UHGV virus genome: UHGV-0245760
DNA from: a virus
Reading direction: 5' to 3' (one strand)
Length of the DNA: 16,166 bases
Shown one piece after another: positions 399 to 16,166 of the stretch (within the stretch, counting starts at the first letter, position 1; each line of letters opens with the position of its first letter). The translations under genes and the position numbers were made by a program. The notes under the pieces were generated by a model. The model saw only the letters and a program-made list of their open reading frames with translations. It made no database searches and was not told the origin of the DNA.

Positions 399-866
399 AT
401 GTTTAAGACAAACAGTCTGCGAGAGTCCATGCTTCATGGGTGTCGGTGGTGCCAGGCTAATCCCGAGAAATTCACCATTTTCGTGGAGAGCGGCAACATT
501 GAAACGACCGGGGAAACGCCCTCGTTTGTTTACCGCTATCAGATGGTGATGTTTGTCATGGATTACGCCGGAGAGCTGGACGACCTCACGCTGCCGCTGC
601 TGGCGTGGTTATCCGAAAATCAGCCACAGTTGTTGCTCAACCCTGAGCGTAATCAGGACATCAAATTCTCCGCCGTTATCAATGACGATGACAGCGCCGA
701 TCTCCTGTTTACGCTCCCCCTGCGGGAACGCGTTCGCATTACGCGCAACAGTCAGGGGACACCGCAGGCAGAACACCTGCAGGAGCCAAAACCCCGTCTG
801 CCCTCTTCCGAAGGCGACTGGTCGCATGTATTCCAGGATGTGACGTGGGGTGAAAGCGATGGATAA
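399..866 (+). CDS. R: P2 gpR-like tail completion protein
   Basis: 155 aa, same length as P2 gpR, with remembered gpR-like motifs (IFVESGN..., LPLLAWLSENQP, LPLRERV). Position immediately upstream of S and V fits P2 order. Confidence 0.7.
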   Translation: MFKTNSLRESMLHGCRWCQANPEKFTIFVESGNIETTGETPSFVYRYQMVMFVMDYAGELDDLTLPLLAWLSENQPQLLLNPERNQDIKFSAVINDDDSADLLFTLPLRERVRITRNSQGTPQAEHLQEPKPRLPSSEGDWSHVFQDVTWGESDG

Positions 867-1494
867 GGCATTCACCCGCGTGGATGAAACCTTTGAGGCC
901 ATCCGCGACAGCCTGAATCAGCAGGCCATCAATAACATCGCCAGAAAGCTGGCACAGGATTTACGCCGCGCCCAGCAGGCGCGTATCCGGTCACAGAAAG
1001 CGCCGGACGGGACCGCATGGACACCACGCAGACGCCGCGTAACCCGGATACAGGAACGTATTCGCTTTATCTGGAATAACGAAGCACGCACGCTGAAAAA
1101 CTGGCATCACGACACGGGGAAATACGGGCGAACCATTACCGGGTGGGATGAGGATAAAAACAATATCCGCACGTTTTACCGGGATGACATCGACCGTTTT
1201 CTGGAAATACGCACCCGGCGCATCAACCAGGACAGCACCAGGCGCGTCCCCATGTTCGTAAAACTGCGCACCGCCCGCTACCTGAAAGCCCGTGCAGATG
1301 CTTCCGGTGTGACGGTGGGTTACAGCGGCGTGGCCGCACGTATTGCACGCGTTCATCAGTTCGGTGAGCGCGATCAGGTTGCGCCGGGCATTTTCACCGA
1401 TTACCCGGTACGTGAGCTGCTGGGTATCAGCCAGGCAGATGAGCGCCTGATTTATAACACGGTGCTGGGCCGGATTGCGGAGGCTGTACGGTGA
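850..1494 (+). CDS. S: P2 gpS-like tail completion / virion morphogenesis protein
   Basis: Position between R and V; basic protein resembling the phage virion morphogenesis family. Start may be GTG 850 or ATG 859; overlaps the R stop at 864-866. Confidence 0.65.
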   Translation: MKAMDKAFTRVDETFEAIRDSLNQQAINNIARKLAQDLRRAQQARIRSQKAPDGTAWTPRRRRVTRIQERIRFIWNNEARTLKNWHHDTGKYGRTITGWDEDKNNIRTFYRDDIDRFLEIRTRRINQDSTRRVPMFVKLRTARYLKARADASGVTVGYSGVAARIARVHQFGERDQVAPGIFTDYPVRELLGISQADERLIYNTVLGRIAEAVR

Positions 1495-2072
1495 GCGCAG
1501 AACTCATGCGACTGCTGAGCAACATCATCCGCACCGGGATCATCTCTGAAGTTGATGAGAAGTCCTGGCGCGTGCGCGTTCGCAGCGGCGAACTGGAAAC
1601 AGGCTGGTTGCGCTGGAACACCACGCGCGCGGGAGCCTTCAATGTGTGGCTGCCGCCATCACCAGGCGAACAGGTGGTAATTGCCTGCATTGGCGGCAAC
1701 CCGGAAACCGCCATGATAATTGGCAGCCTGTGGAGTGATGCCAGTCCGGCCCCCGGCAAAAGCCTGAAAGAAATCGTGGTCAGCGCGCCGGATGGCGCGG
1801 TGTTCCGCTACGACGCAGACGCTGGCGCACTGAGCGCCAGCGGCATGAAAACAGCCACCCTGCAGGCATCCGTCAGCGTGACACTGGACACGCCCGTCGT
1901 GGAATGCACAAACCTTCTGAGAACAGCGACGCTTGACGTCACAAAAGGGGGAAAGATGAGCGGCAATATCACGCACAGCGGCGGCGATTTCACCTCAAAC
2001 GGCATCACAGTGCATACGCATAAACACGGTGGTGTGAAAGGCGGCAGCGATTCGACAGGAGGCCCGCAGTGA
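1491..2072 (+). CDS. V: baseplate assembly protein V (spike)
   Basis: 193 aa; motifs typical of gpV (IIRTGIISEVD, GWLRW, VTLDTPVVECTN, HTHKHGGV). GTG start overlaps S stop (GTGA). Confidence 0.85.
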   Translation: MSAELMRLLSNIIRTGIISEVDEKSWRVRVRSGELETGWLRWNTTRAGAFNVWLPPSPGEQVVIACIGGNPETAMIIGSLWSDASPAPGKSLKEIVVSAPDGAVFRYDADAGALSASGMKTATLQASVSVTLDTPVVECTNLLRTATLDVTKGGKMSGNITHSGGDFTSNGITVHTHKHGGVKGGSDSTGGPQ

Positions 2073-2419
2073 CAACCCGCTACACAGGAATGAATCCGGA
2101 CGGGACGGGAAACCTGAATGATATGGAGCACCTGAAACAGTCAGCCAGGGACATCCTGACCACCCCGCTGGCCAGCCGGGTTATGCGACGGGAATATGGC
2201 AGCCTTGTACCTGATTTGATTGACGAACCCATGAATAACACCACGCGTCTGCAATGCATGAGTGCTGCCGTGATTGCGCTGACACGATGGGAACCCCGCA
2301 TTGCCCTGGACGCCATCGACGTTGTCTGGAAGGCAGGAGGCCGCGCCGGGGTGACGCTGTCGGGCACTGTCATGCAGACCATGCAGAATGTTGAGTTAAC
2401 CATCACGCTGAGGGAGTAA
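2069..2419 (+). CDS. W: baseplate protein W (GP25 / lysozyme-like family)
   Basis: 116 aa, position after V, gpW-like sequence; GTG start with AGGAGG 8 nt upstream; overlaps V stop. Confidence 0.8.
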   Translation: MTTRYTGMNPDGTGNLNDMEHLKQSARDILTTPLASRVMRREYGSLVPDLIDEPMNNTTRLQCMSAAVIALTRWEPRIALDAIDVVWKAGGRAGVTLSGTVMQTMQNVELTITLRE

Positions 2420-2422
2420 ATC

Positions 2423-3319
2423 ATGCCTGCTGTTGACCTTTCCCAGTTACCGGAACCCGCCATCATCGCGAAGCCTGATTTTGAGGCAATTCTGGCTGAC
2501 ACAAAGGCCATGATGATTGCGTCCTATCCTGCCGAACAGCGTGAAGCCGTCTCCGCCGCGCTGGAGCTGGAATCAGAACCCCTGAACGTTATCGCCCAGA
2601 CAACAGCGTTTCGTGAAATGCTGTTACGCCAGCGGGTCAATGAGGGTGCACGCGCCTGCATGTTAAGCCACAGCGCCGGGACAGACCTGGACAACCTCGC
2701 GGGCAATATGAACACAAAGCGCCTGGTTATCACTCCGGCAACGGATACCACCGACGCGGTGATGGAAAGCGACACATCGCTGAGACTGCGGGCGCAACGG
2801 GCGTATGACGGTCTGAGTGTTGCTGGCCCGTCAGGCGCATACGAGTATTTTGCACGCAGCGCCAGCGGTCTGGTACGCGACGCGCGAGCCATCAGCCCGT
2901 CTCCGGCCAACGTGACGGTTTCCATTCTGTCCACTGAAGGCGACGGCACAGCAACGGAGGCGTTGCTTAATACCGTTCGCGCCACTCTGAATGCAGAGGA
3001 TACCCGCCCGGTGGCCGACCGCCTGACCGTACAGAGCGCCAGAATCGTGACATGGCGGCTGAATGCAAAACTGTACTTTTACCCCGGCCCGGAATCCGAA
3101 CCTATTCTGGCCGCGGCTGAATCGTCGTTCAGGAAGTGGCTGGCTGAGCAGGGGCTTATCGGTCAGGACGTGGCGTTGTCCGCCATTGCTGCCGCACTGC
3201 ATGTGCACGGTGTGCAACGCGTGGAGATAATCGAACCCACACAGAATATGGCCATCAGCGACATACAGGCGGCGCGCTGTGAGTCATTCACCATCAGCGA
3301 AGGTGGACGCAATGAGTAA
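2423..3319 (+). CDS. J: baseplate assembly protein J
   Basis: 298 aa, gpJ-like, follows W by 3 nt with GAGGGAG RBS. Confidence 0.85.
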   Translation: MPAVDLSQLPEPAIIAKPDFEAILADTKAMMIASYPAEQREAVSAALELESEPLNVIAQTTAFREMLLRQRVNEGARACMLSHSAGTDLDNLAGNMNTKRLVITPATDTTDAVMESDTSLRLRAQRAYDGLSVAGPSGAYEYFARSASGLVRDARAISPSPANVTVSILSTEGDGTATEALLNTVRATLNAEDTRPVADRLTVQSARIVTWRLNAKLYFYPGPESEPILAAAESSFRKWLAEQGLIGQDVALSAIAAALHVHGVQRVEIIEPTQNMAISDIQAARCESFTISEGGRNE

Positions 3320-3920
3320 TTCGTTGTTACCCCCATCAGCCAGCAATTTCATGCGTTGTGCCGAAGCCGTCGGAACACGCATTACAGACATTCCGGTAGA
3401 CCTCAACACGTTGTGGTCGCCGGACACCTGCCCGGTGCATCTGCTGCCTTATCTCGCCTGGGCGTTTTCCGTTGACCGCTGGGATCGCAACTGGCCGGAA
3501 GAGACAAAGCGACAGGTGATTCGTGATGCATGGCTGATACACCGACACAAAGGGACCATCAGCGCACTGCGAAGAGCCGTGGAGCCTCTCGGCTACCTGA
3601 TTGAAGTAAAGGAGTGGTGGCAACTCAATGAGGAGCCTGGGACATTTCGCATTGTTGTCGGAGTACTTGATCAGGGCATCACCGATGAAATGCATCAGGA
3701 ACTTGAACGCCTTATTGCGGATGCAAAACCAGTAAGTCGCCATCTGACAGGGCTGGCGATCAGTCTGAGTGTGAACGGAAAGATTTTCGTTGGTACGGGA
3801 TGCTATCACGGCGATGCCCTGACGGTTTACCCCTACACCCCGGAGTCCATTATTGTCGAAGGGGATTATTTCCCTGCCCCGGCCATTCATTTAATTGATA
3901 ATCTGAGAGTAAACGCATGA
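3312..3920 (+). CDS. I: baseplate / tail protein I
   Basis: ATG at 3312 overlaps J stop (ATGAGTAA). gpI-like motifs [18 protein letters not shown]. The ORF-track start at 3279 is an in-frame upstream extension and is not preferred. Confidence 0.8.
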
Positions 3921-5347
3921 CAATGAAATACTACGCCATTCTGACTAATCAGGGCGCGGCACGACTGGCTAACGCGACGATGCTCGGCAGTAAGCTGAAT
4001 CTGACGCAAATGGCCGTTGGTGATGCAAATGGTGTGTTACCAACACCAAACCCTGCACAAACAAAACTGATTAACCAGAAACGCATTGCACCGCTGAATC
4101 TTCTGAGTGTTGACCCTAACAATCAGAGCCAGATTATTGCGGAGCAAATCATCCCTGAAGACGAGGGAGGATTCTGGATCCGTGAGATTGGTCTTTATGA
4201 TGATAAAGGTGTACTCATTGCGGTGGCAAACTGCCCGGAAACGTACAAACCGCAGTTGCAGGAAGGCAGTGGACGCACCCAGACTATCCGCATGATTCTG
4301 GTTGTCACGAACACCAAAGCCATCACGCTGAAAATCGACCCGTCTGTGGTTCTGGCAACCCGCAAATATGTGGATGATAAAATCTCAAAGCACGAGCAGT
4401 CACGACGTCACCCGGACGCCTCGCTGACCGCAAAAGGCTTTGTTCAACTTAGCAGCGCCACGGACAGTCAATCAGAAACTGAGGCTGCCACGCCGAAGGC
4501 TGTGAAAATCGCGTATGATCTGGCCCGGGGAAAATACACAGCCCAGGATGCAACAACGACCCGTAAAGGGATCGTACAACTGAGCAGTGCCATCAACAGC
4601 ACGTCTGAAACGCTGGCCGCCACACCGAAGGCCGTCAAGGCTGCATACGACCTTGCAGCCGGCAAGGCGCCCGTCAGCCACACTCACCCGTGGAGTCAGA
4701 TAACGGGAGTGCCTGCTGCCTCGCTGACGGCAAAAGGCACCGTACAATTGAGCAGTGCCATCAACAGCACGTCTGAAATACTGGCCGCCACACCGAAAGC
4801 GGTCAAGGCTGCATACGATCTGGCAAACGGAAAACAACCGGCAGATGCCACGCTCACTGCTCTGGCAGGACTTGTCACTGCAGCAGATCGGTTGCCTTAT
4901 TTTACCGGAGCAGACCGCGCAGCGCTGGCAACCCTTACAGCTATTGGTCGCGCTATTATCGCTAAGGGCAGTATAAAAGATGTCCTCAATTACCTTGGTT
5001 TGGGAGAAGCGGCAAAAAGGAATGTGGGGACAGGGACGAATCAGATACCTGATATGGGTAGCTTCACGCTTTCTGTTTCAGGTACTGGATATCAAAAATT
5101 ACCATCTGGTTTTATTCTTCAGTGGGGCTCAATCGGCGCACCAAGCATTGCACAGGATGTGGTAACCCATTTTCCGATTGCATTTCCAAACAGATGTCTG
5201 CGTGTTTTGGTCTCACAAGACTACACACCAGATAGCGGGGCTGTTGGTTATATTGCCTGTGCAGGTTTTAGTTCCGACCCGGTTAAATTTATATCCAGAG
5301 CCAGTACTCCTGGCCTCGGCGCTTCATTTTTAGCGTTAGGCTGTTAA
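3917..5347 (+). CDS. H: tail fiber protein H: constant N-terminal part (3917-4996) fused to the currently expressed variable C-terminal cassette (4997-5347)
   Basis: 476 aa; N-terminus ([20 protein letters not shown]...MAVGDANG) is the conserved P2 H / Mu S type fiber N-terminus; internal fiber repeats; ATG overlaps I stop (ATGA). Confidence 0.85.
4418..4836 (+). repeat. three imperfect in-frame fiber-shaft repeats within H (consensus [27 protein letters not shown])
   Basis: Copies begin near 4418, 4550 and 4718; copies 2 and 3 are nearly identical at DNA level by eye. They generate spurious minus-strand ORFs 4468..4683, 4472..4837, 4696..4878. Confidence 0.7.
4983..5008. repeat. left inversion crossover site (hix/gix-like 26-bp site), core TT at 4995-4996
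   Basis: TCCTCAATTACC TT GGTTTGGGAGAA; 19 of 26 positions match the Hin hix consensus as I recall it; its inner half-site is the exact reverse complement of the half-site at 6819-6830. Confidence 0.6.
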
Positions 5348-5369
5348 TTTAGCTATATGGAGTGAAAAA

Positions 5370-5810
5370 ATGAATTACATATATTCCGCGACGACAAACT
5401 CTTTCTATCCCTTGGAGATGAAAGAGGATTACACACAAGCTGACTCATGGCCAGATGATGCTGTTGAAGTTGATGAGCAAGTGTATATTGAGTTTTCCGG
5501 ATTACCGCCGAAAGGAAAAATCCGTATCGCTGGAGAAAATGGTTTTCCTGCATGGTCTGAAATTCCACCACCAACACATGAGGAACAGATTGCTGCAGCC
5601 GAACAGGAAAAGCAGCAACTGATTAATCAGGCCAACGATTATATGAACAGTAAACAATGGCCTGGTAAAGCGGCTATTGGTCGTCTGAAAGGTGAGGAAC
5701 TGGCGCAATATAATTTGTGGCTGGATTATCTGGACGCACTGGAACTGGTCGATACTTCCGGTGCGCCAGATATTGAATGGCCTACGCCTCCGGCAGTTCA
5801 GGCCAGATGA
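5370..5810 (+). CDS. tail fiber assembly protein (Tfa / gpG / Mu U type), partner of the currently expressed fiber C-terminus
   Basis: 146 aa; follows the fiber stop by 22 nt with GGAG RBS; C-terminal motif LWLDYLDALELVDTSGAPDIEWPTPP typical of fiber assembly chaperones. Confidence 0.8.
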   Translation: MNYIYSATTNSFYPLEMKEDYTQADSWPDDAVEVDEQVYIEFSGLPPKGKIRIAGENGFPAWSEIPPPTHEEQIAAAEQEKQQLINQANDYMNSKQWPGKAAIGRLKGEELAQYNLWLDYLDALELVDTSGAPDIEWPTPPAVQAR

Positions 5811-6375
5811 CATCCGGCGCGGTGCTGGTATCTGTTGTCGTCACCGCGTCAATGTAATCAAGCACGGCGTTAAGCCGGGTGGTTTCTGCCTGCGTCAGCT
5901 TCCGCCCGGCCTGTAATTTCAGCTGAATCAGACTGATGGAAGCCATTGCAGCATCAATCAGTGACTGGCGCTGTGCTTCTGCCGCTTCTACTGCGGCACC
6001 GTGTTGTGCCTCAGTATCTGTCACCCATTTCTCACCATCCCATTTATCATATGGCGTTAACGGTGAAAGCGTGACATAACCGTTTTTGATGGCACCGATA
6101 TAATCCACTGTAACAGCAGCACCATTTTCGATTGAGTAAACAGTCTCATTGCGATGGTCTTCTTCATGGCTCCATCCCTTACCTGTAAATACTGCCACTC
6201 TTCCCGGAATGTTTTCGCCAGGGTCAATACCAGTGGAACAGGCGGGCATACTTACGCCAGTATTAATATATTCATCAGACCAGCCCGTATACTCAGATGT
6301 TTCAGCATCATAATAAAAACAACGCATATCGCCCGGCACTGTAGCCAGCCCATTTTCATCAAAAACAGGTTTCAT
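5782..6375 (-). CDS. alternative tail fiber assembly protein, silent in this orientation
   Basis: 197 aa; C-terminal LNAVLDYIDAVTTTDTSTAPDVIWPELPEA parallels the plus-strand chaperone; 3' ends of the two chaperone genes overlap at 5782-5810; its ATG (6373-6375) overlaps the stop of the upstream silent fiber cassette (TAATG). Confidence 0.75.
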   Translation of the reverse strand: MKPVFDENGLATVPGDMRCFYYDAETSEYTGWSDEYINTGVSMPACSTGIDPGENIPGRVAVFTGKGWSHEEDHRNETVYSIENGAAVTVDYIGAIKNGYVTLSPLTPYDKWDGEKWVTDTEAQHGAAVEAAEAQRQSLIDAAMASISLIQLKLQAGRKLTQAETTRLNAVLDYIDAVTTTDTSTAPDVIWPELPEA

Positions 6376-6830
6376 TATTTAGCCCTCACCAGAAAGTTAA
6401 ATGCAATATTTCGCGGTCTGACAGCAACAAAATTCACACCATCACCCAAAGAGTTACTGGTGAAATTAAATCGTGAAAATCCTGGCTGATTTCCGGCGAT
6501 GCCATCATGAAAATTAATTGCGTGTCCCGCACCTCCGCCTATATTCCCGGCAAACTGAGAAAAGTTTGTAGCTGCCTGCCAGCTTAATAATTTGCGACCA
6601 CCGTCTGCACCTCGCCCGTCATCCCAGATACGAATGAAATCACCGCGGGCTTCAGGTAATACCAGCGAAGGAAACACTTTTGCCAGCACAGGGTAATCAG
6701 AGGCAGAAAATTTCGCCCCGTTGAACTTCAAAAACACCATACTGGACCAGCTTTTGATTACGGTATCTGGCATTGCGGCGGACGGCCAGAAGAACGGAAC
6801 GCCAATAGCTGGAGAACCTTCTCCCAAACC
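6375..6830 (-). CDS. alternative tail-fiber C-terminal cassette (no own start; expressed only after inversion fuses it to H 3917-4996)
   Basis: In frame with the H constant region across the crossover: after inversion ...[20 protein letters not shown]... reads through to a stop at 6375-6377, giving a fiber of about 511 aa. The ORF-track Met at 6884 lies beyond the crossover site and is probably fortuitous. Confidence 0.6.
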   Translation of the reverse strand, partial: GLGEGSPAIGVPFFWPSAAMPDTVIKSWSSMVFLKFNGAKFSASDYPVLAKVFPSLVLPEARGDFIRIWDDGRGADGGRKLLSWQAATNFSQFAGNIGGGAGHAINFHDGIAGNQPGFSRFNFTSNSLGDGVNFVAVRPRNIAFNFLVRAK

Positions 6831-6844
6831 AACGTTTTCGTTTT
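6819..6844. repeat. right inversion crossover site, core AA at 6831-6832
   Basis: TTCTCCCAAACC AA CGTTTTCGTTTT; 6819-6835 is the reverse complement of 4992-5008 with one mismatch (16 of 17). Confidence 0.6.
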
Positions 6845-6898
6845 TATCCCTACCTATACCAACTCTGTATTTTTCACGAAACAAAGAGGATGTTTTTT

Positions 6899-7498
6899 AT
6901 GCAAATTGGCTATATTCGTGTGTCAACAAACGACCAGAACACGGATTTACAACGCAATGCACTGAACTGCGCAGGATGTGAACTGATTTTTGAAGATAAA
7001 ATCAGCGGAACGAAATCAACCAGACCGGGATTGAAAAAACTGCTCAGAACGCTATCAGAAGGAGATACGCTGGTTGTCTGGAAGCTGGACAGACTGGGCA
7101 GAAGTATGAAACACCTGATCACGCTTATTGAGGAATTGCGGGAAAAAGGTGTTAATTTCCGTAGTCTGACGGACAGCATTGACACGTCAACACCCATGGG
7201 GCGTTTCTTTTTTCACGTCATGGGGGCTTTAGCCGAAATGGAACGTGAATTAATTGTAGAACGTACACTGGCCGGGCTGGCAGCAGCACGCGCACAAGGA
7301 CGCATTGGCGGACGTCGCCCGAAGTTGACAAAAGAACAACACGAGCAAATAGCAAGGCTGATTAAAAACGGTCATGACAGGAAACAACTGGCGATCATTT
7401 ACGACATCGGCATATCGACGATTTATCGTTATCACCCTGTAGGCGATATACAGGCTGAAGCAACAACCAGGCAGACTCAGGAAAATGAAAACCGCTAA
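6899..7498 (+). CDS. serine-recombinase DNA invertase (Hin/Gin/Cin/Pin family)
   Basis: N-terminus MQIGYIRVSTNDQNTDLQRNAL matches the invertase catalytic-serine region; resolvase-type core (LVVWKLDRLGRSMKHL) and C-terminal HTH (GISTIYRY). AGAGGA RBS 8 nt upstream of ATG 6899; the ORF-track start at 6890 is less likely. Confidence 0.9.
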   Translation: MQIGYIRVSTNDQNTDLQRNALNCAGCELIFEDKISGTKSTRPGLKKLLRTLSEGDTLVVWKLDRLGRSMKHLITLIEELREKGVNFRSLTDSIDTSTPMGRFFFHVMGALAEMERELIVERTLAGLAAARAQGRIGGRRPKLTKEQHEQIARLIKNGHDRKQLAIIYDIGISTIYRYHPVGDIQAEATTRQTQENENR

Positions 7499-7524
7499 TC
7501 TGACCATTAGCGGTTTTGCGTTAA

Positions 7525-8013
7525 TCAAAACAGCCCTTTAACGGAGCTGGCCGCGCTGTTAAGGGATGATGTGACCTTATCTTTGAAGCCGGACAGCATA
7601 TCACTGAACGATGAGGATTGCAGGCGCTCCCGCAAATCCTCATCACAGCGTTCAAGGGTCAGTGAAAATTCTATCTTTTTCGCCTTACCGTAGCGATCAA
7701 ACTCGGAACGGGTCGTATTCGTTTCGGTCAGGACATACATGCCGTAAATCTGCCCGACACCATCAATCAGAGGCCAGGGGCGTCCTGTATATGCCTGCGT
7801 GGTCAGCAACGAAAGCGACACTTCGCCACCTGTAATTTCAGGATAAAGCACGCCTGAAAGCACGATGCGATCATCACCTGCACCGATATACTGCCAGCTT
7901 GCTGAACGGTTAACGCGTTCATTTTTCACATGCCGCCAGCTTTTGCTTTGCTGTAACTGCTGATGCGGCAACGTGCGCAGCTCAAAAACAAACATGCCGT
8001 AGATCATCATCAT
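7525..8013 (-). CDS. U: tail protein U (tail terminator)
   Basis: gpU-like (MMMIYGMFVFELRTLPHQQLQ...); GAGGAG RBS upstream; start taken at the third ATG (8011-8013) for RBS spacing, but 8017-8019 is possible. Confidence 0.8.
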   Translation of the reverse strand: MMMIYGMFVFELRTLPHQQLQQSKSWRHVKNERVNRSASWQYIGAGDDRIVLSGVLYPEITGGEVSLSLLTTQAYTGRPWPLIDGVGQIYGMYVLTETNTTRSEFDRYGKAKKIEFSLTLERCDEDLRERLQSSSFSDMLSGFKDKVTSSLNSAASSVKGLF

Positions 8014-8025
8014 GGCCATGACTCC

Positions 8026-10974
8026 TCAATCTTTATCGTAAAAACTGCCACGCCCGGCACGGGCGCGCCGTTCCATTTCTGCCCTGACCATTTCACCGAC
8101 CAGTTTCGCCAGTTCGCGGGGATTCTGCGTAACAACGTTATGCAGATGAACATGAATTTCACCACCAAATCCGGAGGCAACAGGCTCCCGGTTACGGGAA
8201 GTTACAGGAACTGATGCCACTGGCGATCGTATGGCCTCCGCCACCGGGCGGGAGCTGGCCGCAACAACAGGGACCAGCGCCGGAGGCAGCGGAGCCGGGA
8301 CCACGGGTGTGGTATTAATTGCGGGGGCAGGCTTACTGACCTGCGCAATCTTCCGCTCCTGCCACTCCCCACCAGGGACCAGCGCCAGAGGCAGCGGAGC
8401 AGGGACCACGGGTGTGATATTAATTGCGGAGGCAGGCTTACTGACCTGCGCAATCTTCCGCTCCTGCCACTCCCCACGAACGGCAAGTGCGCGGGGCAGG
8501 TTCTTAAAGACAATATCACCGGGGCCAATGCGTTTTTTCGTCTCATCAACCAGCTTACCTGTGTTATCAGCAATTTTGCTGAGTCTGCGTAGCGTACCGG
8601 TATTGCTGTCTGTGAGCGGTTTGTTGTCTTTGGGTTTATCGCCTCCGGTGCCATTGCCATTTTCCGCAGACTTCGGCGGATTGATTTTCGCAATGTCTCC
8701 CTGAAACAGAGCAACCTTGTCCTGAAGAATGGCCGCACGCTGTGCGTCTTCAATTTTCTTGCGCGCCCTTTCCGCTTCATCCGGAAGGACGCCAAGTTTT
8801 TCAAGTATCCACGCCAGCGTATCCAGTAGCATTTTTGCAGGTGTCAGAACAAGCTGTAACGCACCGCCAAGAACGTTACCGAATATCTCGCCAGCACTGG
8901 TACATTTATCCAGCGTTTCCTTGCTGGACTCCATCGGTGACAGCAGCGATTTAAACCAGTTAAAGACCTGAATAATCCCATCGCGCACGACATCAAAAAC
9001 AGGACCGAACCGTTCAAAGGTTTCGCGCAACGGAGCCAGTCGTTCCATAATCCCGTTGAACACCCCGATATAAAACGCCTTGATGGGTTCCCAGTATTTC
9101 CAGATGAGAACTGCCGCAGCCACAAACGCGGCAACAATCAATCCGACCGGACTGAACAGCGCCCCGATAGCGCCACCCAGCAACGAGATGGAACCTGTTA
9201 CCATTCCCCATAGTGCTGGCAGCACCCTGACGACATTCATTGATCCTGTCAGGAGAGAAAAACCGAGACGTAACGTAGCCAGCTTCCCGTGAAGCACCCC
9301 AATAACCAGAGACAACGAACCAACCGTTGCTGTTGTCGCCAGCAGTGCGCCTCCCGCTATCAGTAACTGGCGCGTCAGTACCGGATGGGCCTGCGCCAGC
9401 GCCGTCACCTTTGAGACCACCCGCGTGAGCCACTGCGTGACAGAACGCAGCGGACCGTCAATCAGATCTGCAATGCGGATGCGCAACCCTTCCCATGCAC
9501 TGCCGAGTGATTTCAGATCGCCATCAAGGTTGTTGGCCATAACCTTTGCCGTGCGTTCAGCCTCACCGCGTGCGCCCTCAAGTTCTTTTCTCAGTTTGGG
9601 TAAGGAACCGTCACCCGCCGCATCAACGAGTGCCATAAACGATGTGAAAGCCTCTTCCCCGGCGATGTCCTTAAAGAAGGATACCCGGTCAACTTCCCCG
9701 TATTTGCGGGTAGCTTTATAAAGGTCAGCCAGCAGATCTTCCATCGGGCGCATTTTGCCCCCGGCATCCGAGACGGACACGCCCAGCTCTTTCAGAGCTT
9801 CTGCCGCCGCCTTTGGCGGTGATGCCAGACGAGCCAGGCTGGCACGCATTGCCGTCCCGGCATCACTCCCTCTGATGCCCATATTCGCCAGCACGCCCGC
9901 CATCGCTGCGGCCTGCTCCAGCGATATCCCCAGCTTACCCGCCACCGGACCGGCATATTTCATGGTTTCGCCCAGTGCGCGAAGGTCAGTGTTGGTACGG
10001 GTAAACGCTGCGGTGAGTGTGTCTCCGACCCGGTCCATCTGGTCAGCAGAAAGGCCGAACTGCGTCAGGATATTTGAGCCAATATCTGCCGTCTCGCCGA
10101 GATCCATACCGCCAGCCGTTGCCATGCTCAGTACGCCGGGAAGCGCAGCCTGAATGGCCTGCGGAGTGAAGCCTGCCATTGCAAGAAATGCCTGCCCACT
10201 GGCGGCATCGCCTGCGGTGAACTGCGTTTCAGAGCCAAGTTTTAACGCCTGCTCACGCAGCGCCTTAAACTGCAGGCTGTTTTTGTCGATTCGCGTCAGT
10301 GCCTGAACGCGGGACATCTCTTTCCCGAACCCGATCGCAGGCTGCAAAAAACGCCCGGCAGCATAGCCGCCAGCCGCTGCCGCACCAATTGCCAGCGCAC
10401 CACCTGTTTTCAGTTTTCCTGCTGTTTCCTGCGCGCGCGAATACCGCTCACGCGCACGCGTTACACGCGCAAGCGCCTGCCGTTCGCGTTCAAGCTGATT
10501 GTTGTACTGTTCGGTGCGTCTGATGGCCTGCTGGATGGTGTTATCGCTGCCTGTCAGGGAAATGCCGTGGCGTTTCAGCTCTCCGCCAAGCTCCCGCATT
10601 TTCTGAATTTCCCGTGTGCGCGATTCATTCAGGCGTTCAAGCCGGGTGCTTAACTGCTGCATCAGCTTTTGTTGTTTTTCGCTGAGCACTGTACCCGTGC
10701 GTTGTAACTGATTAAGGGCGTTAAGCTGGCGTCGTGCTTTCACGATGCCAGCATCCGCTTTACTGACAGCGTCACGGGCGCGCTCAAATGAACGCGCCTG
10801 ACGCTCGAGATTTTTGATCGCCCCCTGCGTTCGCTGGATGGAGTCACCAAACTGCCCCATCAGGCGGCGGGCGTTTTCGGCAGGCCGGGTCAGCCTGTCA
10901 ACGGCGCTGAAAGCGACCCGGATATCAAGAGTCTTCATTGTCTGCATTCCCGCTGCGAAGTGCCGCCCGCTCAC
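8026..10974 (-). CDS. T: tail tape measure protein T
   Basis: 982-aa ORF, long helical N-terminal half, hydrophobic Gly-rich central segments, position between E' and U. The 10974 start is GTG; internal ATGs at 10945-10947 and 10936-10938 are alternative starts. Confidence 0.85.
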   Translation of the reverse strand: MSGRHFAAGMQTMKTLDIRVAFSAVDRLTRPAENARRLMGQFGDSIQRTQGAIKNLERQARSFERARDAVSKADAGIVKARRQLNALNQLQRTGTVLSEKQQKLMQQLSTRLERLNESRTREIQKMRELGGELKRHGISLTGSDNTIQQAIRRTEQYNNQLERERQALARVTRARERYSRAQETAGKLKTGGALAIGAAAAGGYAAGRFLQPAIGFGKEMSRVQALTRIDKNSLQFKALREQALKLGSETQFTAGDAASGQAFLAMAGFTPQAIQAALPGVLSMATAGGMDLGETADIGSNILTQFGLSADQMDRVGDTLTAAFTRTNTDLRALGETMKYAGPVAGKLGISLEQAAAMAGVLANMGIRGSDAGTAMRASLARLASPPKAAAEALKELGVSVSDAGGKMRPMEDLLADLYKATRKYGEVDRVSFFKDIAGEEAFTSFMALVDAAGDGSLPKLRKELEGARGEAERTAKVMANNLDGDLKSLGSAWEGLRIRIADLIDGPLRSVTQWLTRVVSKVTALAQAHPVLTRQLLIAGGALLATTATVGSLSLVIGVLHGKLATLRLGFSLLTGSMNVVRVLPALWGMVTGSISLLGGAIGALFSPVGLIVAAFVAAAVLIWKYWEPIKAFYIGVFNGIMERLAPLRETFERFGPVFDVVRDGIIQVFNWFKSLLSPMESSKETLDKCTSAGEIFGNVLGGALQLVLTPAKMLLDTLAWILEKLGVLPDEAERARKKIEDAQRAAILQDKVALFQGDIAKINPPKSAENGNGTGGDKPKDNKPLTDSNTGTLRRLSKIADNTGKLVDETKKRIGPGDIVFKNLPRALAVRGEWQERKIAQVSKPASAINITPVVPAPLPLALVPGGEWQERKIAQVSKPAPAINTTPVVPAPLPPALVPVVAASSRPVAEAIRSPVASVPVTSRNREPVASGFGGEIHVHLHNVVTQNPRELAKLVGEMVRAEMERRARAGRGSFYDKD
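8269..8478 (-). repeat. in-frame tandem duplication (2 x 105 bp) within the 3' part of the tape measure gene
   Basis: Units 8269-8373 and 8374-8478 differ at only a few positions; encodes GEWQERKIAQVSKPA-AINITPVVPAPLP-ALVP twice; explains shadow ORFs 8231..8704 (+) and 8202..8804 (-). Confidence 0.75.
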
Positions 10975-11454
10975 GCCAGCTAACCACTTCGCCGGGCGTC
11001 ATCATGAAGATTTCAGCGGGCGACCAGTTAAAAATAACGGCAATATCTGCCACAAAGTCTTCTATGTGCTCAAAGCACACAACCGTGATCAGGCTTCCGT
11101 CGCCTGTTCGTTCTTCCCGCCAGAGTCCGCACCGCTCAAAAAATTTACGGCAACCACACATAACTGAATAAAGTCACGGGATGCCATTTTTTTGATCGTC
11201 ACTTCATCCAGTCGCGGTGATGTCACGCGTGACAGCAGCGTAAACATGGATTCCGCTTTCAGATTCAGCACATCAGACAACGACAAATCTCGCAGAGATC
11301 CAGCCTGCTCAATAGCTCCGGTGATCTCCACATACGTGATTTTTTCGCCGCCTCGCTCAATTGGTTGGGTAAGTTTTACGCCACGCTCACTGGTTTCTTT
11401 CACAGTGTCAGTAACTACCGTGTTTTCGGTATCGATGTTTTTCGTCTCTTTCAT
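10925..11454 (-). CDS. E+E' tail assembly chaperone made by programmed -1 frameshift (E frame to 11137, then -1 frame to stop at 10925-10927)
   Basis: Slippery heptamer T_TTT_TTG in the E frame; the -1 frame continues as FFERCGLWREERTGDG... (ORF-track 10925..11161) and overlaps the start of T, as in P2. Confidence 0.6.
11089..11454 (-). CDS. E: tail assembly chaperone E (zero-frame product)
   Basis: Position between FII and T; contains the slippery site near its 3' end; start position not verified. Confidence 0.65.
   Translation of the reverse strand: MKETKNIDTENTVVTDTVKETSERGVKLTQPIERGGEKITYVEITGAIEQAGSLRDLSLSDVLNLKAESMFTLLSRVTSPRLDEVTIKKMASRDFIQLCVVAVNFLSGADSGGKNEQATEA
11137..11143 (-). 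promoter_or_regulatory. -1 ribosomal frameshift slippery heptamer T_TTT_TTG (plus strand CAAAAAA)
   Basis: Zero-frame codons AAT TTT TTG; shifting back one nucleotide gives TTT TTT GAG, joining E to E'. Confidence 0.55.
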
Positions 11455-11508
11455 CAGGAAACTCCTTTCAGTCAGAGGCGACGCACTGCGCCGCCTGCAT
11501 ATTACTTA

Positions 11509-12021
11509 TCAGCCAAGCCCAAGCGCGGAACGGATACGGTCAGGCACAATGTCCTTGCCGTCCTTCCGGTAAATGAAGTTCAGCAGGTCAATCTCCCACA
11601 ACGGGCGATCGTTAACACTCAGCTTGTAGTAGGTGTTTTTAATGGCGTAAGTGTGTGATGTGGCTTCGCCCTGTTTGGCTTCCCCCATATCAATTTCCGT
11701 CACACGTCCGCGCATTTCGACTTCATACAGGTCGCTTTCTGCATCGGTGTAGTATTCACCCGCAAAACGCAGCAGCGTGCCGTCAATCGTGCCGCCATAC
11801 TTAAGGAACAGCTCACGAACTGCGCCCCCCATGACAAAGCTCGCATCAAGCGCGGAGTCGTCCAGACCGAGATCAATACTTACCGCACCCATCATGCCAC
11901 CACCCCGGTAGCTGTCGGTTTTGCGCGTCAGTTTAGGCAGAGTGACGGACGTCACCTTACCCACTTCGTTTTCACCATCCACAAACAGCGTAAAAAAGCG
12001 AAGATGTTTTGGTACAGCCAT
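11509..12021 (-). CDS. FII: tail tube protein FII
   Basis: 170 aa, gpFII-like (MAVPKHLRFFTLFVDGE...); start overlaps FI stop (ATGA at 12021). Confidence 0.85.
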   Translation of the reverse strand: MAVPKHLRFFTLFVDGENEVGKVTSVTLPKLTRKTDSYRGGGMMGAVSIDLGLDDSALDASFVMGGAVRELFLKYGGTIDGTLLRFAGEYYTDAESDLYEVEMRGRVTEIDMGEAKQGEATSHTYAIKNTYYKLSVNDRPLWEIDLLNFIYRKDGKDIVPDRIRSALGLG

Positions 12022-13205
12022 CAGGCACCTCCCAGCACCGCAAATGCGGGACCAAAGAATTCATCAGTAAACGACTGGTAAAGCTCCATGTCTTCCAGCG
12101 GGGGAACTGGCGTATATTTGTAGCGAATACGCACACGTCCCTGACGTAAACCCGTGGTGCTGTTATCCACCACGTCATACCAGCACTCCGCGCCAATCAG
12201 TTTCCCGGCAGTAACCAGTGAATCCAGTTTTGCCCTGATGGCACTGATAACATCCTTCACGTTCGCAGGCGTCAGTGGACTGTCGATGGTTTCAAACTGC
12301 GCTTCCGCAATTGAATCAGCCAGCACCTGTGCGGTTCGGGTATACACCTCAAAGATGTAGGCGTTCGTTTCCGGTGTGCGGTTGCCCCAGAAGCGGAACC
12401 CGTTACGACGAATAATGGTCGTGATTTCTTTGTTGTTAAGGCTGTTGGCATCGCTGTCTTCGGCCTGCAACGACCAGAACACATGCCGGGACATCCCCAG
12501 CACATTTTTAACCGGAACGTTGGACAGTGATTTGTGCCAGCCCTGCTCATGGTCAATGTACGCACGAAGGCCGCACGCATAAGCAGGCGCGGGGAACGTT
12601 TCGTTTTTGCCACTTTTCGGGTTGTAGGCGATGAAGTCCGGCCATAAGAGCATCACCTCACGTTCGTTGAATTTCTGGCGGTAGGTAATTGCCTCTGCCA
12701 TCGTGTTACAGCCATGACATGAGGCATACACAAACGCGCGCAGTTTACCCGCAATCACGCACAGGGATTTTGTCACCGCCTCCGTGTCCAGCTCCGGCGC
12801 GGCCAGAATACGCGGACGGTATCCGATGCTTTCATCCTGCTCTGCAACAAGCAGCGCATACATCCCCGTATAGCTGCCGTCAGATTCAGAACCACCGATA
12901 ACCAGTTGATCCTGCGTCTTTCCGTTTTCTTCTTTGTGTTCAGCCACGCGAACGACGATCACCTTTGTGCTCACCTGGTCTGCGATGGCCTTAAGCGCAC
13001 GATAAAGCGTCCCCGTTGTCCCGCATTTTCCCAGCACGTCATTGACGCGGGTCAGCAGTGTGGGCTTGTTCAGCGGGAACAGCTTCGCGTCCGCATCATC
13101 CGCCGTTGCCACGATACCGATAACGCTGGAATCAACATCGTTAATCGCTGTTACCAGGTCGGTACTTTCCGTAACACGGGCACCATGAAAACGAGTTTCA
13201 CTCAT
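12021..13205 (-). CDS. FI: contractile tail sheath protein FI
   Basis: 394 aa, sheath-like throughout; AAGGGG RBS about 10 nt upstream of ATG 13203-13205. Confidence 0.9.
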   Translation of the reverse strand: MSETRFHGARVTESTDLVTAINDVDSSVIGIVATADDADAKLFPLNKPTLLTRVNDVLGKCGTTGTLYRALKAIADQVSTKVIVVRVAEHKEENGKTQDQLVIGGSESDGSYTGMYALLVAEQDESIGYRPRILAAPELDTEAVTKSLCVIAGKLRAFVYASCHGCNTMAEAITYRQKFNEREVMLLWPDFIAYNPKSGKNETFPAPAYACGLRAYIDHEQGWHKSLSNVPVKNVLGMSRHVFWSLQAEDSDANSLNNKEITTIIRRNGFRFWGNRTPETNAYIFEVYTRTAQVLADSIAEAQFETIDSPLTPANVKDVISAIRAKLDSLVTAGKLIGAECWYDVVDNSTTGLRQGRVRIRYKYTPVPPLEDMELYQSFTDEFFGPAFAVLGGA

Positions 13206-14472: not shown

Positions 14473-14512
14473 GCAACTTAGAATAGGCAGCACCACGTTA
14501 AGGGAGGTCGCT

Positions 14513-14963: not shown

Positions 14964-15104
14964 ATGTCGCAAAAATCGCTTATGGCCATCACGTTCTGCG
15001 TGACGGCAATCCTCATCATCTGGATGCTGCACGGTTCGCTGTGTGAAATACGGATGAGCTTCTGGGGAGCGGAGTTTGCGGCGTTCTTACAGTGTAAGCA
15101 GTAA
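14964..15104 (+). CDS. Hok/Gef-family type I toxin (46 aa)
   Basis: MSQKSLMAITFCVTAILIIWMLHGSLCEIRMSFWGAEFAAFLQCKQ: N-terminal membrane helix, then SLCEIR and E-AAF motifs and C-terminal Cys as in Hok/HokA proteins. AGGAG RBS at 14951-14955. Below the ORF-track length cut-off. Confidence 0.7.
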   Translation: MSQKSLMAITFCVTAILIIWMLHGSLCEIRMSFWGAEFAAFLQCKQ

Positions 15105-16113: not shown

Positions 16114-16166
16114 TGGTACCCGGAGCGGGACTTGAACCCGCACAGCGCGAACGCCGAGGGATTTTA
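16114..16166 (-). tRNA. leuZ: tRNA-Leu(UAA), 3' portion only (anticodon loop to CCA); 5' part lies beyond the window
   Basis: Reverse complement of 16114-16166 is TAAAATCCCTCGGCGTTCGCGCTGTGCGGGTTCAAGTCCCGCTCCGGGTACCA, matching the E. coli leuZ 3' half as I remember it (variable arm, T-arm GGTTCAAGTCC, acceptor, CCA). Confidence 0.85.

Follow-up and report, generated by a model that had tools for sequence, protein, structure and literature searches.

The 16,166-nucleotide window analysed here, the whole stretch taken from virus genome UHGV-0245760, contains a phage tail-fibre gene, H, together with a second, oppositely oriented fibre C-terminus and a predicted DNA invertase. Is this arrangement a working switch between two fibre tips, to which known system does it belong, and what kind of prophage carries it? 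An earlier note, made from the letters and their open reading frames (ORFs), had proposed a complete invertible host-range switch inside a P2-type tail module. We followed up that proposal.

Architecture of the invertible segment

Gene H at present occupies 3917-5347 in the ORF list and encodes 476 aa. The segment between the crossovers is 1,838 bp long. It encodes two fibre C-termini, of 116 and 151 aa, as well as two Caudo_TAP chaperones, of 146 and 197 aa, whose genes converge and overlap by 29 nt (Table 1). The earlier note had given about 1.83 kb and the same four protein sizes, all of which agree with the ORF list, and that list holds no fibre C-terminal cassette in the segment beyond these two. 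The chaperone A gene has GGAG 8 nt 5' of its ATG. Cassette B lacks a separate start codon at the junction, and the last base of its stop codon overlaps the ATG of chaperone B. Both tips match the C-terminal ends of PHROG tail-fibre families; for cassette B there is also a weak Pfam Collar match, and a sequence search of a solved-structure library returned marginal matches only, to T4 gp37 (0.008) and a short tail fiber (0.1).

The constant part of H is in frame with both cassettes, as had been claimed: flipping 4995-6832 in silico converts the present 476-aa product into an uninterrupted H of 511 aa. In one relative, RefSeq labels the counterpart of the 6375-6830 ORF a truncated pseudogene; this ORF should instead be annotated as an alternative H C-terminus.

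Table 1. Features of the fibre-switch region, in window coordinates.
Feature	Position	Strand	Evidence and remarks
H constant N-terminal part, 360 aa	3917..4996	+	Outside the invertible segment; Pfam Phage_tail_fib (1-150) and three Phage_fiber_2 repeats
Left crossover site	4983-5008	+	Reads TCCTCAATTACC-TT-GGTTTGGGAGAA; central dinucleotide 4995-4996
Cassette A, expressed fibre C-terminus, 116 aa including GLGE	4997..5347	+	Pfam Gp53-like_C, 5e-15
Chaperone A, tail-fibre assembly protein, 146 aa	5370..5810	+	Pfam Caudo_TAP, 1e-38; same orientation as cassette A
Chaperone B, tail-fibre assembly protein, 197 aa	5782..6375	-	Pfam Caudo_TAP, 1e-26; same orientation as cassette B
Cassette B, alternative fibre C-terminus (silent), 151 aa with GLGE	6375..6830	-	PHROG tail-fibre / tail-collar, 3e-52 and 6e-41
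Right crossover site	6819-6844	+	Reads TTCTCCCAAACC-AA-CGTTTTCGTTTT; central dinucleotide 6831-6832
Gene for a Pin/Gin/Cin-family serine DNA invertase, 199 aa	6899..7498	+	Pfam Resolvase, 2e-51, and HTH_7, 1e-12
Putative recombinational enhancer in invertase gene	6917..6988	+	Aligns with the annotated P1 cin enhancer, 56/72 identical
Candidate hairpin terminator between convergent invertase and gpU genes	7488..7517	-	12-bp stem, then T run

Crossover sites

Direct reading, a repeat finder and a half-site search all confirm the two 26-bp inverted sites described in the earlier note. The sites are inverted relative to each other, the central TT of the left being the reverse complement of the AA of the right. 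The half-site TTCTCCCAAACC occurs in exactly two copies in the 16-kb window, on opposite strands (4997-5008, minus; 6819-6830, plus), and the repeat finder reports an 18-nt inverted repeat of 94% identity at 4992-5009 and 6818-6835. By itself this repeat is just moderately unlikely by chance: when the 2.4-kb region was simulated 200 times with a first-order Markov model, 2.5% of the runs gave a match of at least 17 of 18 positions. The identity of the sites is settled because they match the e14 sites and because the breakpoints in a relative, described below, fall within them.

Alignment with known sites, which the earlier note had suggested, places both as homologues of the e14 sites and as relatives of gix and cix. 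The left site aligns with the e14 left site, CTCTCGAAAACC-TT-GGTTTGGGAGAA, and can also be aligned with P1 cix and Mu gix; the right site has its counterpart in the e14 right site, TTCTCCCAAACC-AA-CGTTTATGAAAA. Between e14 and the window the inner half-sites (TTCTCCCAAACC) and the central dinucleotides are identical, whereas each outer half-site differs at 4 positions. The window's outer half-sites, TCCTCAATTACC on the left and AAAACGAAAACG on the right, diverge from the inner half-site. The same alignment reveals equal outer half-site degeneracy in the functional e14 and P1 sites.

Invertase gene and flanking signals

The gene directly outside the right site had been read as an intact serine invertase, and its relatives bear this out. 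The solved Gin structures 4M6F and 3UJ3 match residues 1-182 of the product at 3e-91, and its identity is 82% to e14 PinE, 72% to Mu Gin and 74% to P1 Cin. Catalytic Ser9, as well as D64, R65 and R68, is invariant in the alignment with these three proteins. Compared with PinE, the window invertase is extended at its C-terminus by 15 residues, and its gene is preceded by a different spacer. The enzyme also has a methionine where both solved Gin chains have valine; this valine is the substitution M114V, which we take to be a Fis-independent mutation.

The invertase start codon is 67.5 bp away from the crossover centre, the distance also found in e14 and Mu. The 54-bp spacer between the right site and the start codon is unrelated to the spacers of e14, Mu and a relative (L001), and a promoter scan between these two points found no sigma-70-like promoter; a promoter for the invertase gene is presumed. 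When the 5' end of the gene was searched for Fis sites, as had also been suggested, two matches to the Fis consensus KNNYRNNWNNYRNNM were found at 6921-6935 and 6969-6983, 48 bp apart. The two matches recur at the same columns of an alignment of the window with L001, e14 pin, Mu gin and P1 cin, a conservation that is confounded by the conserved protein coding. The surrounding 6917-6988 stretch may act as a recombinational enhancer, on which, with Fis, inversion would probably depend. Downstream of the invertase, the hairpin at 7488-7517 is predicted to act as a terminator.

Inversion in related genomes

The closed genome of E. coli ST69 (NZ_CP102488) contains window positions 4992-6835 reverse-complemented, at 99.89% identity over 1,844 nt, between flanks that are colinear with the window (441-5009 and 6818-11191, 97.8-99.9%). 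Alignment of the junctions places a reciprocal exchange at the core TTGGTTTGGGAGAAG, with breakpoints within both crossover sites. Thirteen public E. coli contigs encode a protein identical at every residue to the predicted flipped H of 511 aa, and the present 476-aa form is found on 6-7; in many assemblies the two proteins have an identical 360-aa constant part. As far as assembled genomes can tell, these comparisons show that the switch has flipped in nature and that both orientations occur among E. coli genomes. The proposal that the segment inverts is thus upheld by a near-identical prophage in the opposite orientation and by both H fusions in public assemblies. Isolates that differ in the orientation of this segment alone should not be scored as structurally different.

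Prophage context

Pfam matches in the window comprise GpR, S, V, W, J, I, H, U, T (tape measure), FII, FI, D and Ogr, a gene set that supports the proposed P2-type tail module, and all tail ORFs and ogr are intact. Gene order and strands are identical to those of P88_4B11 (V W J I H tfa / tfa' H' / invertase / U T E' E FII FI reversed / D ogr). The megablast match to P88_4B11 is confined to the invertase region (82%), and the constant parts of the two H proteins are 59% identical; unlike the window, P88_4B11 has Mu/P1-type U/U' chaperones (175-177 aa) and different fibre tips. Directly upstream of the corresponding region, colinear relatives (96-99% identity) have genes for terminase, scaffold, capsid, head completion and lysis. 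Judged from its genes, the host element is a P88-like (Xuanwuvirus), P2-family (Peduoviridae) prophage of E. coli. Rfam and tRNA scans of the window found nothing.

The minus-strand block from sheath to gpU (7525-13205) was considered as a second, larger inversion produced by this invertase, and rejected. All E. coli relatives examined, and P88_4B11 as well, show the same order, and the block borders hold no matching crossover site.

Comparison with known inversion systems

The earlier note had likened the locus to the Mu G, P1 C and e14 P segments. The shared layout stands, and the closest relative among the three is e14 P, not Mu G or P1 C. In the P segment of e14, a cryptic prophage of E. 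coli K-12 (stfP-tfaP / tfaE-stfE / pinE), all five genes are arranged and oriented as in the window, the chaperone genes have the same 29-nt overlap, and the crossover has the same position relative to the invertase start. The chaperones are well conserved between the two elements (60% identity of chaperone A to TfaP, 63.5% of chaperone B to TfaE), whereas the fibre tips are less so (29% for cassette A and StfP, 41% for cassette B and StfE). The constant part of StfP is short in e14, a defective lambdoid element; the window has a full-length P2-type H in an apparently complete myovirus tail module.

Mu G and P1 C follow the same logic as the window: a U/U' chaperone accompanies each of the alternative tips (Sv/Sv') of a constant Sc, the crossover sites are 26-bp gix or cix, and an enhancer, putative in the window, lies within the invertase gene. 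Both of their segments are larger (3.0 kb in Mu and 4.2 kb in P1). The cassettes of the window have no significant similarity to the variable parts of Mu S/S' or P1 S, and chaperone A is weakly similar to U' (30-32%). The central dinucleotide of Mu gix is TC, where the window has TT; P1 cin, unlike the window invertase, is on the opposite side, with cixL overlapping its 3' end.

Inversion has been documented in P2-like prophages. In EPEC E2348/69 it was detected by sequencing in two such prophages, with PCR confirmation for the complex locus (PMC4272514). One of these loci has three repeats and four variants, as against two repeats in the window. The 98% identity of the window invertase to the predicted invertase of E2348/69 links it, indirectly and by sequence, to these experimentally flipping loci. 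In the E2348/69 genome, three regions examined for the gene of that invertase were without a prophage, and the leuZ site was without an integrated element. The element type is already known and experimentally documented, and for P88-like prophages to have an inversion switch on the P2-like H is standard, not unusual.

Interpretation

The locus is very probably a functional inversion switch of the Din family (Pin/Gin/Cin/Hin type) in the tail-fibre gene of a P88-like, P2-family E. coli prophage, a reading drawn from comparative sequence evidence. The features of the Din family were found, namely a small serine recombinase with an HTH domain, inverted 26-bp sites and a segment known in both orientations across genomes. 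So were those of a Mu G / P1 C / e14 P-type cassette, namely a constant N-terminus outside the segment, two opposed tips in frame with it, and one chaperone for each tip.

In the mechanism that we envision, codons 1-360 of H lie outside the segment, as does the late promoter expected to drive them. Dimers of the 199-aa invertase would bind both 26-bp sites, and Fis bound to the enhancer within the invertase gene would promote assembly of the invertasome. Both sites would be cut at the central TT/AA, and subunit rotation and religation would leave 4995-6832 inverted. In the present orientation, H would be made with the 116-aa gp53-like tip, followed by the 146-aa chaperone; after flipping, it would carry the collar-type tip of 151 aa, with the start of the 197-aa chaperone gene overlapping the tip's stop codon. 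Two kinds of virion with different receptor specificity could in this way come from one population of lysogens, a form of host-range bet-hedging. Inversion is presumed to change the receptor or the host range. Such a switch would be a textbook bet-hedging device that swaps the receptor-binding tip of a phage; it is common in the lineage and so carries little weight as a discovery. Host-range prediction for this prophage must take in both tips.

Several other explanations deserve consideration. The architecture could be an intact but frozen relic in a prophage that no longer inverts, either for want of an invertase promoter or through poor binding of the outer half-sites, with the differences between isolates being older. 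The missing promoter-like site upstream of the invertase and the degenerate outer half-sites are what such a relic might show, but functional e14 and P1 sites are no less degenerate. Over 1,844 nt, the inverted NZ_CP102488 copy has diverged by about 0.1%, so the inversion is recent; both orientation-specific H proteins retain the same constant part, and the exact invertase protein is present on 510 contigs of public assemblies. We regard a relic as quite improbable. Still less credible, indeed scarcely so, is RecA-dependent recombination between short inverted repeats, or an assembly artefact, in place of the invertase. The arms share 15-18 identical bases, which could in principle allow rare exchange or confuse short-read assemblers. 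Efficient RecA exchange usually requires a homology longer than this, however, and the breakpoints lie precisely within homologues of the characterised Pin, Gin and Cin sites, adjoining an intact invertase. As for an artefact, NZ_CP102488 is a closed genome, and a short-read assembler outputs both forms only if given both kinds of junction read.

The switch might instead vary the killing spectrum of a bacteriocin in a domesticated tailocin or defective prophage, and not the host range of a phage; the earlier note had allowed for a derived tailocin. The window holds tail, lysis-end and regulatory genes only, and carotovoricin Er is cited as an example of functioning P2-type tailocins whose fibre genes invert (PMC4272514). 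Against this stand the intact tail genes and ogr and the head, terminase and lysis genes of the close relatives, which make a tailocin very unlikely. P88-type phages with the window's gene order are, moreover, inducible according to the P88 report, which makes no mention of inversion or an invertase (PMC5285337). A multiple-inversion system of the shufflon type, with more than two fibre variants, has a parallel in Min of p15B and in the three-repeat locus known from an EPEC P2-like prophage (PMC4272514), and it is highly improbable here. A half-site search that allowed up to two mismatches found no third crossover site in the fibre region, its only further match (76-87) being within chance expectation. 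Inside the segment there is no further AAACC-NN-GGTTT-like site with a plausible half-site, and the cassettes number two.

A functional two-state switch, our preferred reading, might also have wider reach. It is conceivable, if rather unlikely, that the invertase acts in trans on Pin/Gin-type sites of co-resident prophages, or that the gp53-like and collar-type tips provide an unreported pair of receptors. Action in trans is possible because E. coli genomes have a median of 2 places, and up to 17, similar to the fibre-to-invertase region. If it occurs, the host-range states of several phages in one cell would be coupled. There is a precedent in Fin of Fels-2, which, as summarised in PMC4272514, acts in trans on the Salmonella H segment (Kutsukake 2006).

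Both orientations of the tail-fibre segment

The invertible tail-fibre switch that the earlier note had placed in a P2-type tail module is real, and the note's reading of it is supported. Public contigs carry both forms of the tail-fibre protein H, and the segment lies flipped in NZ_CP102488 (E. coli O15:H18 ST69). There, window positions 4992-6835 align by BLAST in reverse complement (99.89% over 1,844 nt), between flanks (441-5009 and 6818-11191) that remain colinear at 97.8-99.9%. The annotated order is H (611 aa) and tfa (197), converging on tfa (146) and a gp53-like fragment, with the invertase next, as predicted for the window in its other orientation. A six-way junction alignment places a clean reciprocal exchange inside the shared core TTGGTTTGGGAGAAG. 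Searches across the junctions in 5,426 complete E. coli genomes recovered each of the two junction kinds, on the left as well as on the right.

The claim that the H frame is kept in both orientations also stands. Flipping 4995-6832 in silico leaves H open and yields a product of 511 aa, compared with 476 aa at present. Exactly this 511-aa sequence is encoded on 13 public E. coli contigs, and the 476-aa protein is found among the same neighbouring genes on 6-7 contigs. In the present state, 22 nt separate H from the gene for the 146-aa chaperone, which is preceded by GGAG; in the flipped state, the H stop codon and the ATG of the 197-aa chaperone overlap by one base. Cassette B, the silent alternative C-terminus, matches PHROG tail-fibre and tail-collar families at their C-terminal ends (3e-52 and 6e-41).

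Genes and crossover sites of the invertible region, with the e14 counterparts of the sites
Feature	Position	Strand	Length	Description (source)
H	3917-5347	+	476 aa	Phage_tail_fib, 3 Phage_fiber_2 repeats, gp53-like C-terminal domain (ORF list, Pfam)
Chaperone A	5370-5810	+	146 aa	Caudo_TAP (Pfam)
Chaperone B	5782-6375	-	197 aa	Caudo_TAP (Pfam); 29-nt overlap with chaperone A
Cassette B	6830->6375	-	151 aa	Open frame without own start (ORF list)
Invertase	6899-7498	+	199 aa	Resolvase + HTH_7 (Pfam)
Left crossover site	4983-5008			TCCTCAATTACC-TT-GGTTTGGGAGAA (sequence read)
Right crossover site	6819-6844			TTCTCCCAAACC-AA-CGTTTTCGTTTT (sequence read)
e14 left site				CTCTCGAAAACC-TT-GGTTTGGGAGAA; counterpart of left site
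e14 right site				TTCTCCCAAACC-AA-CGTTTATGAAAA; counterpart of right site

The two inverted 26-bp hix/gix-like sites were read as the earlier note described them, and in alignment they belong with Mu gix and P1 cix, the e14 sites being the closest. A repeat finder returns an 18-nt inverted repeat of 94% (4992-5009 and 6818-6835). This repeat is by itself suggestive but not decisive, because 2.5% of 200 sequences of 2.4 kb simulated by a Markov model contain an inverted repeat of at least 17/18. Evidence beyond the repeat settles the case for a switch.

Relationship to known inversion systems

By sequence comparison, the nearest named relative is the P segment of the K-12 cryptic prophage e14, joined here to a P88-type H constant part, since the window cassettes are syntenic homologues of e14 genes and lack significant similarity to the variable parts of Mu S/S' and P1 S. 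Cassette A, the currently expressed C-terminus, is 29% identical to StfP and its chaperone 60% identical to TfaP; the corresponding values for cassette B and its chaperone are 41% (StfE) and 63.5% (TfaE). The H protein of P88 is 59% identical to the constant part. In protein alignment, the window enzyme shares 82% identity with e14 PinE, 74% with P1 Cin and 72% with Mu Gin; Ser9 and the conserved Asp and Arg residues are invariant among the four. A match to the solved Gin structures scores 3e-91.

The switch is an element of an already known kind, common and experimentally documented in this lineage. Reproducible phase variation by inversion has been described for e14 of K-12 and for two P2-like prophages of EPEC E2348/69, one locus with two repeats and the other with three; PCR confirmed variants for e14 and the more complex EPEC locus (Goldberg et al. 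2014, PMC4272514). The window invertase is 98% identical to CAS09379.1, a predicted invertase of EPEC E2348/69. Genes enriched at programmed inversions include tail fiber, tail fiber assembly and 'phage tail protein I' (Milman et al. 2023, PMC9881135).

Mechanism and alternatives

Very probably, the invertase, with Fis bound to an enhancer in the invertase gene itself, would bring the two sites into synapsis and cleave at their central dinucleotides. The resulting inversion of 1,838 bp would exchange the C-terminal tip fused to the constant part of H together with the co-transcribed cognate chaperone. Constant part, tip and chaperone would be transcribed from the upstream late operon, and a lysogen population would release two virion types, presumably differing in host range.

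The Cin enhancer is annotated in the P1 record at cin nucleotides 19-90, and the homologous stretch of the window (6917-6988) is identical at 56 of 72 positions. A degenerate Fis consensus, KNNYRNNWNNYRNNM, reportedly that of Hübner and Arber 1989, is matched at 6921-6935 and 6969-6983, 48 bp apart; both matches line up column for column across the window, its relative 06-00048, pin, gin and cin. The distance from crossover centre to invertase start codon is 67.5 bp in the window, e14 and Mu. The window enzyme has Met where both solved Gin chains have Val; that substitution, M114V, is the Fis-independent mutation. Together these features suggest that the switch depends on Fis and the enhancer, an argument weakened because the enhancer bases also encode conserved protein. 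The invertase presumably has a promoter; a scan of spacer 6845-6898 gave no sigma-70-like candidate.

A segment frozen as a relic is unlikely: the flipped copy in NZ_CP102488 differs by about 0.1%, which makes the inversion recent. RecA-mediated exchange between the repeats, or an assembly artefact, could also produce a reversed segment. Either is unlikely, since the breakpoints lie exactly in sites homologous to those of Pin, Gin and Cin, beside an intact invertase. Nor is a shufflon a likely description of a locus where the 12-nt half-site TTCTCCCAAACC has exactly two copies in the 16,166-base window, one per strand, at the two crossover sites. That the module serves a tailocin is likewise unlikely: in colinear relatives, head, terminase and lysis genes precede it directly.

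Additional observations

The 54-bp spacer 6845-6898, from right site to invertase start, is unrelated to those of e14, Mu and 06-00048, and the invertase begins MQIGYI rather than MLIGYV (codons 2 and 6 differ). A hairpin with a 12-bp stem and flanking A and T runs (7488-7517) overlaps the stop codon of the invertase. It separates this gene from gpU, which converges on it, and probably terminates transcription in both directions.

The constant part of H differs in length among near-identical prophages (window 3917-4996 versus L005, a region of an E. coli relative, 5353-7188). H has 611 aa in the ST69 genome, whereas flipping the window into that orientation gives a predicted 511 aa, and the alignment offsets map to the Phage_fiber_2 repeat region. 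In 06-00048, RefSeq labels the counterpart of cassette B (L001 11512-11973) an 'incomplete, missing N-terminus' pseudogene; in strain 1439 (L006 4885-6142), the annotation divides H itself into broken pieces. Such mis-annotation as decay is therefore routine for invertible fibre cassettes.

The window spans the tail region and the right end of a P2-family E. coli prophage. Before H, the plus strand carries GpR, S, V, W, J and I; beyond the invertase, the minus strand carries U, tape measure, E/E', FII and FI, and D and Ogr follow on the plus strand. The block 7525-13205(-), comprising FI sheath, FII tube, E/E', T and U, runs opposite to the baseplate/fibre operon and converges on the invertase, an order that departs from canonical P2. 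A second inversion was considered and rejected: Xuanwuvirus P88_4B11 and every E. coli relative examined have the identical order, which is therefore typical of the lineage. No invertase-type site was found at the block's borders in the window. Within the tape-measure gene, a 105-bp unit is present in two tandem copies matching at 96% (8268-8477). Relatives align with an offset there, which suggests that copy number varies and would change tape-measure length.

The last 1.7 kb of the window is colinear with E. coli chromosomes at 99.9%, which carry there a Hok/Gef gene and then the leuZ-cysT-glyW-pgsA-uvrC neighbourhood. The prophage right end lies between ~15104 and ~16114, because the window ends (16114-16166) within the tRNA-Leu of the leuZ-cysT-glyW cluster, beside pgsA and uvrC. 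Colinearity with an annotated genome places a Hok/Gef-family toxin gene just right of ogr (~14964-15104, plus strand); an Rfam scan of the window returned no Sok/Hok RNA at gathering score. Between gpD and ogr, 06-00048 has a 1.2-kb insert (L001 19520-20720) that the window lacks (14473-14478); it encodes an alpha/beta-fold hydrolase, probably a cargo gene acquired by that relative.
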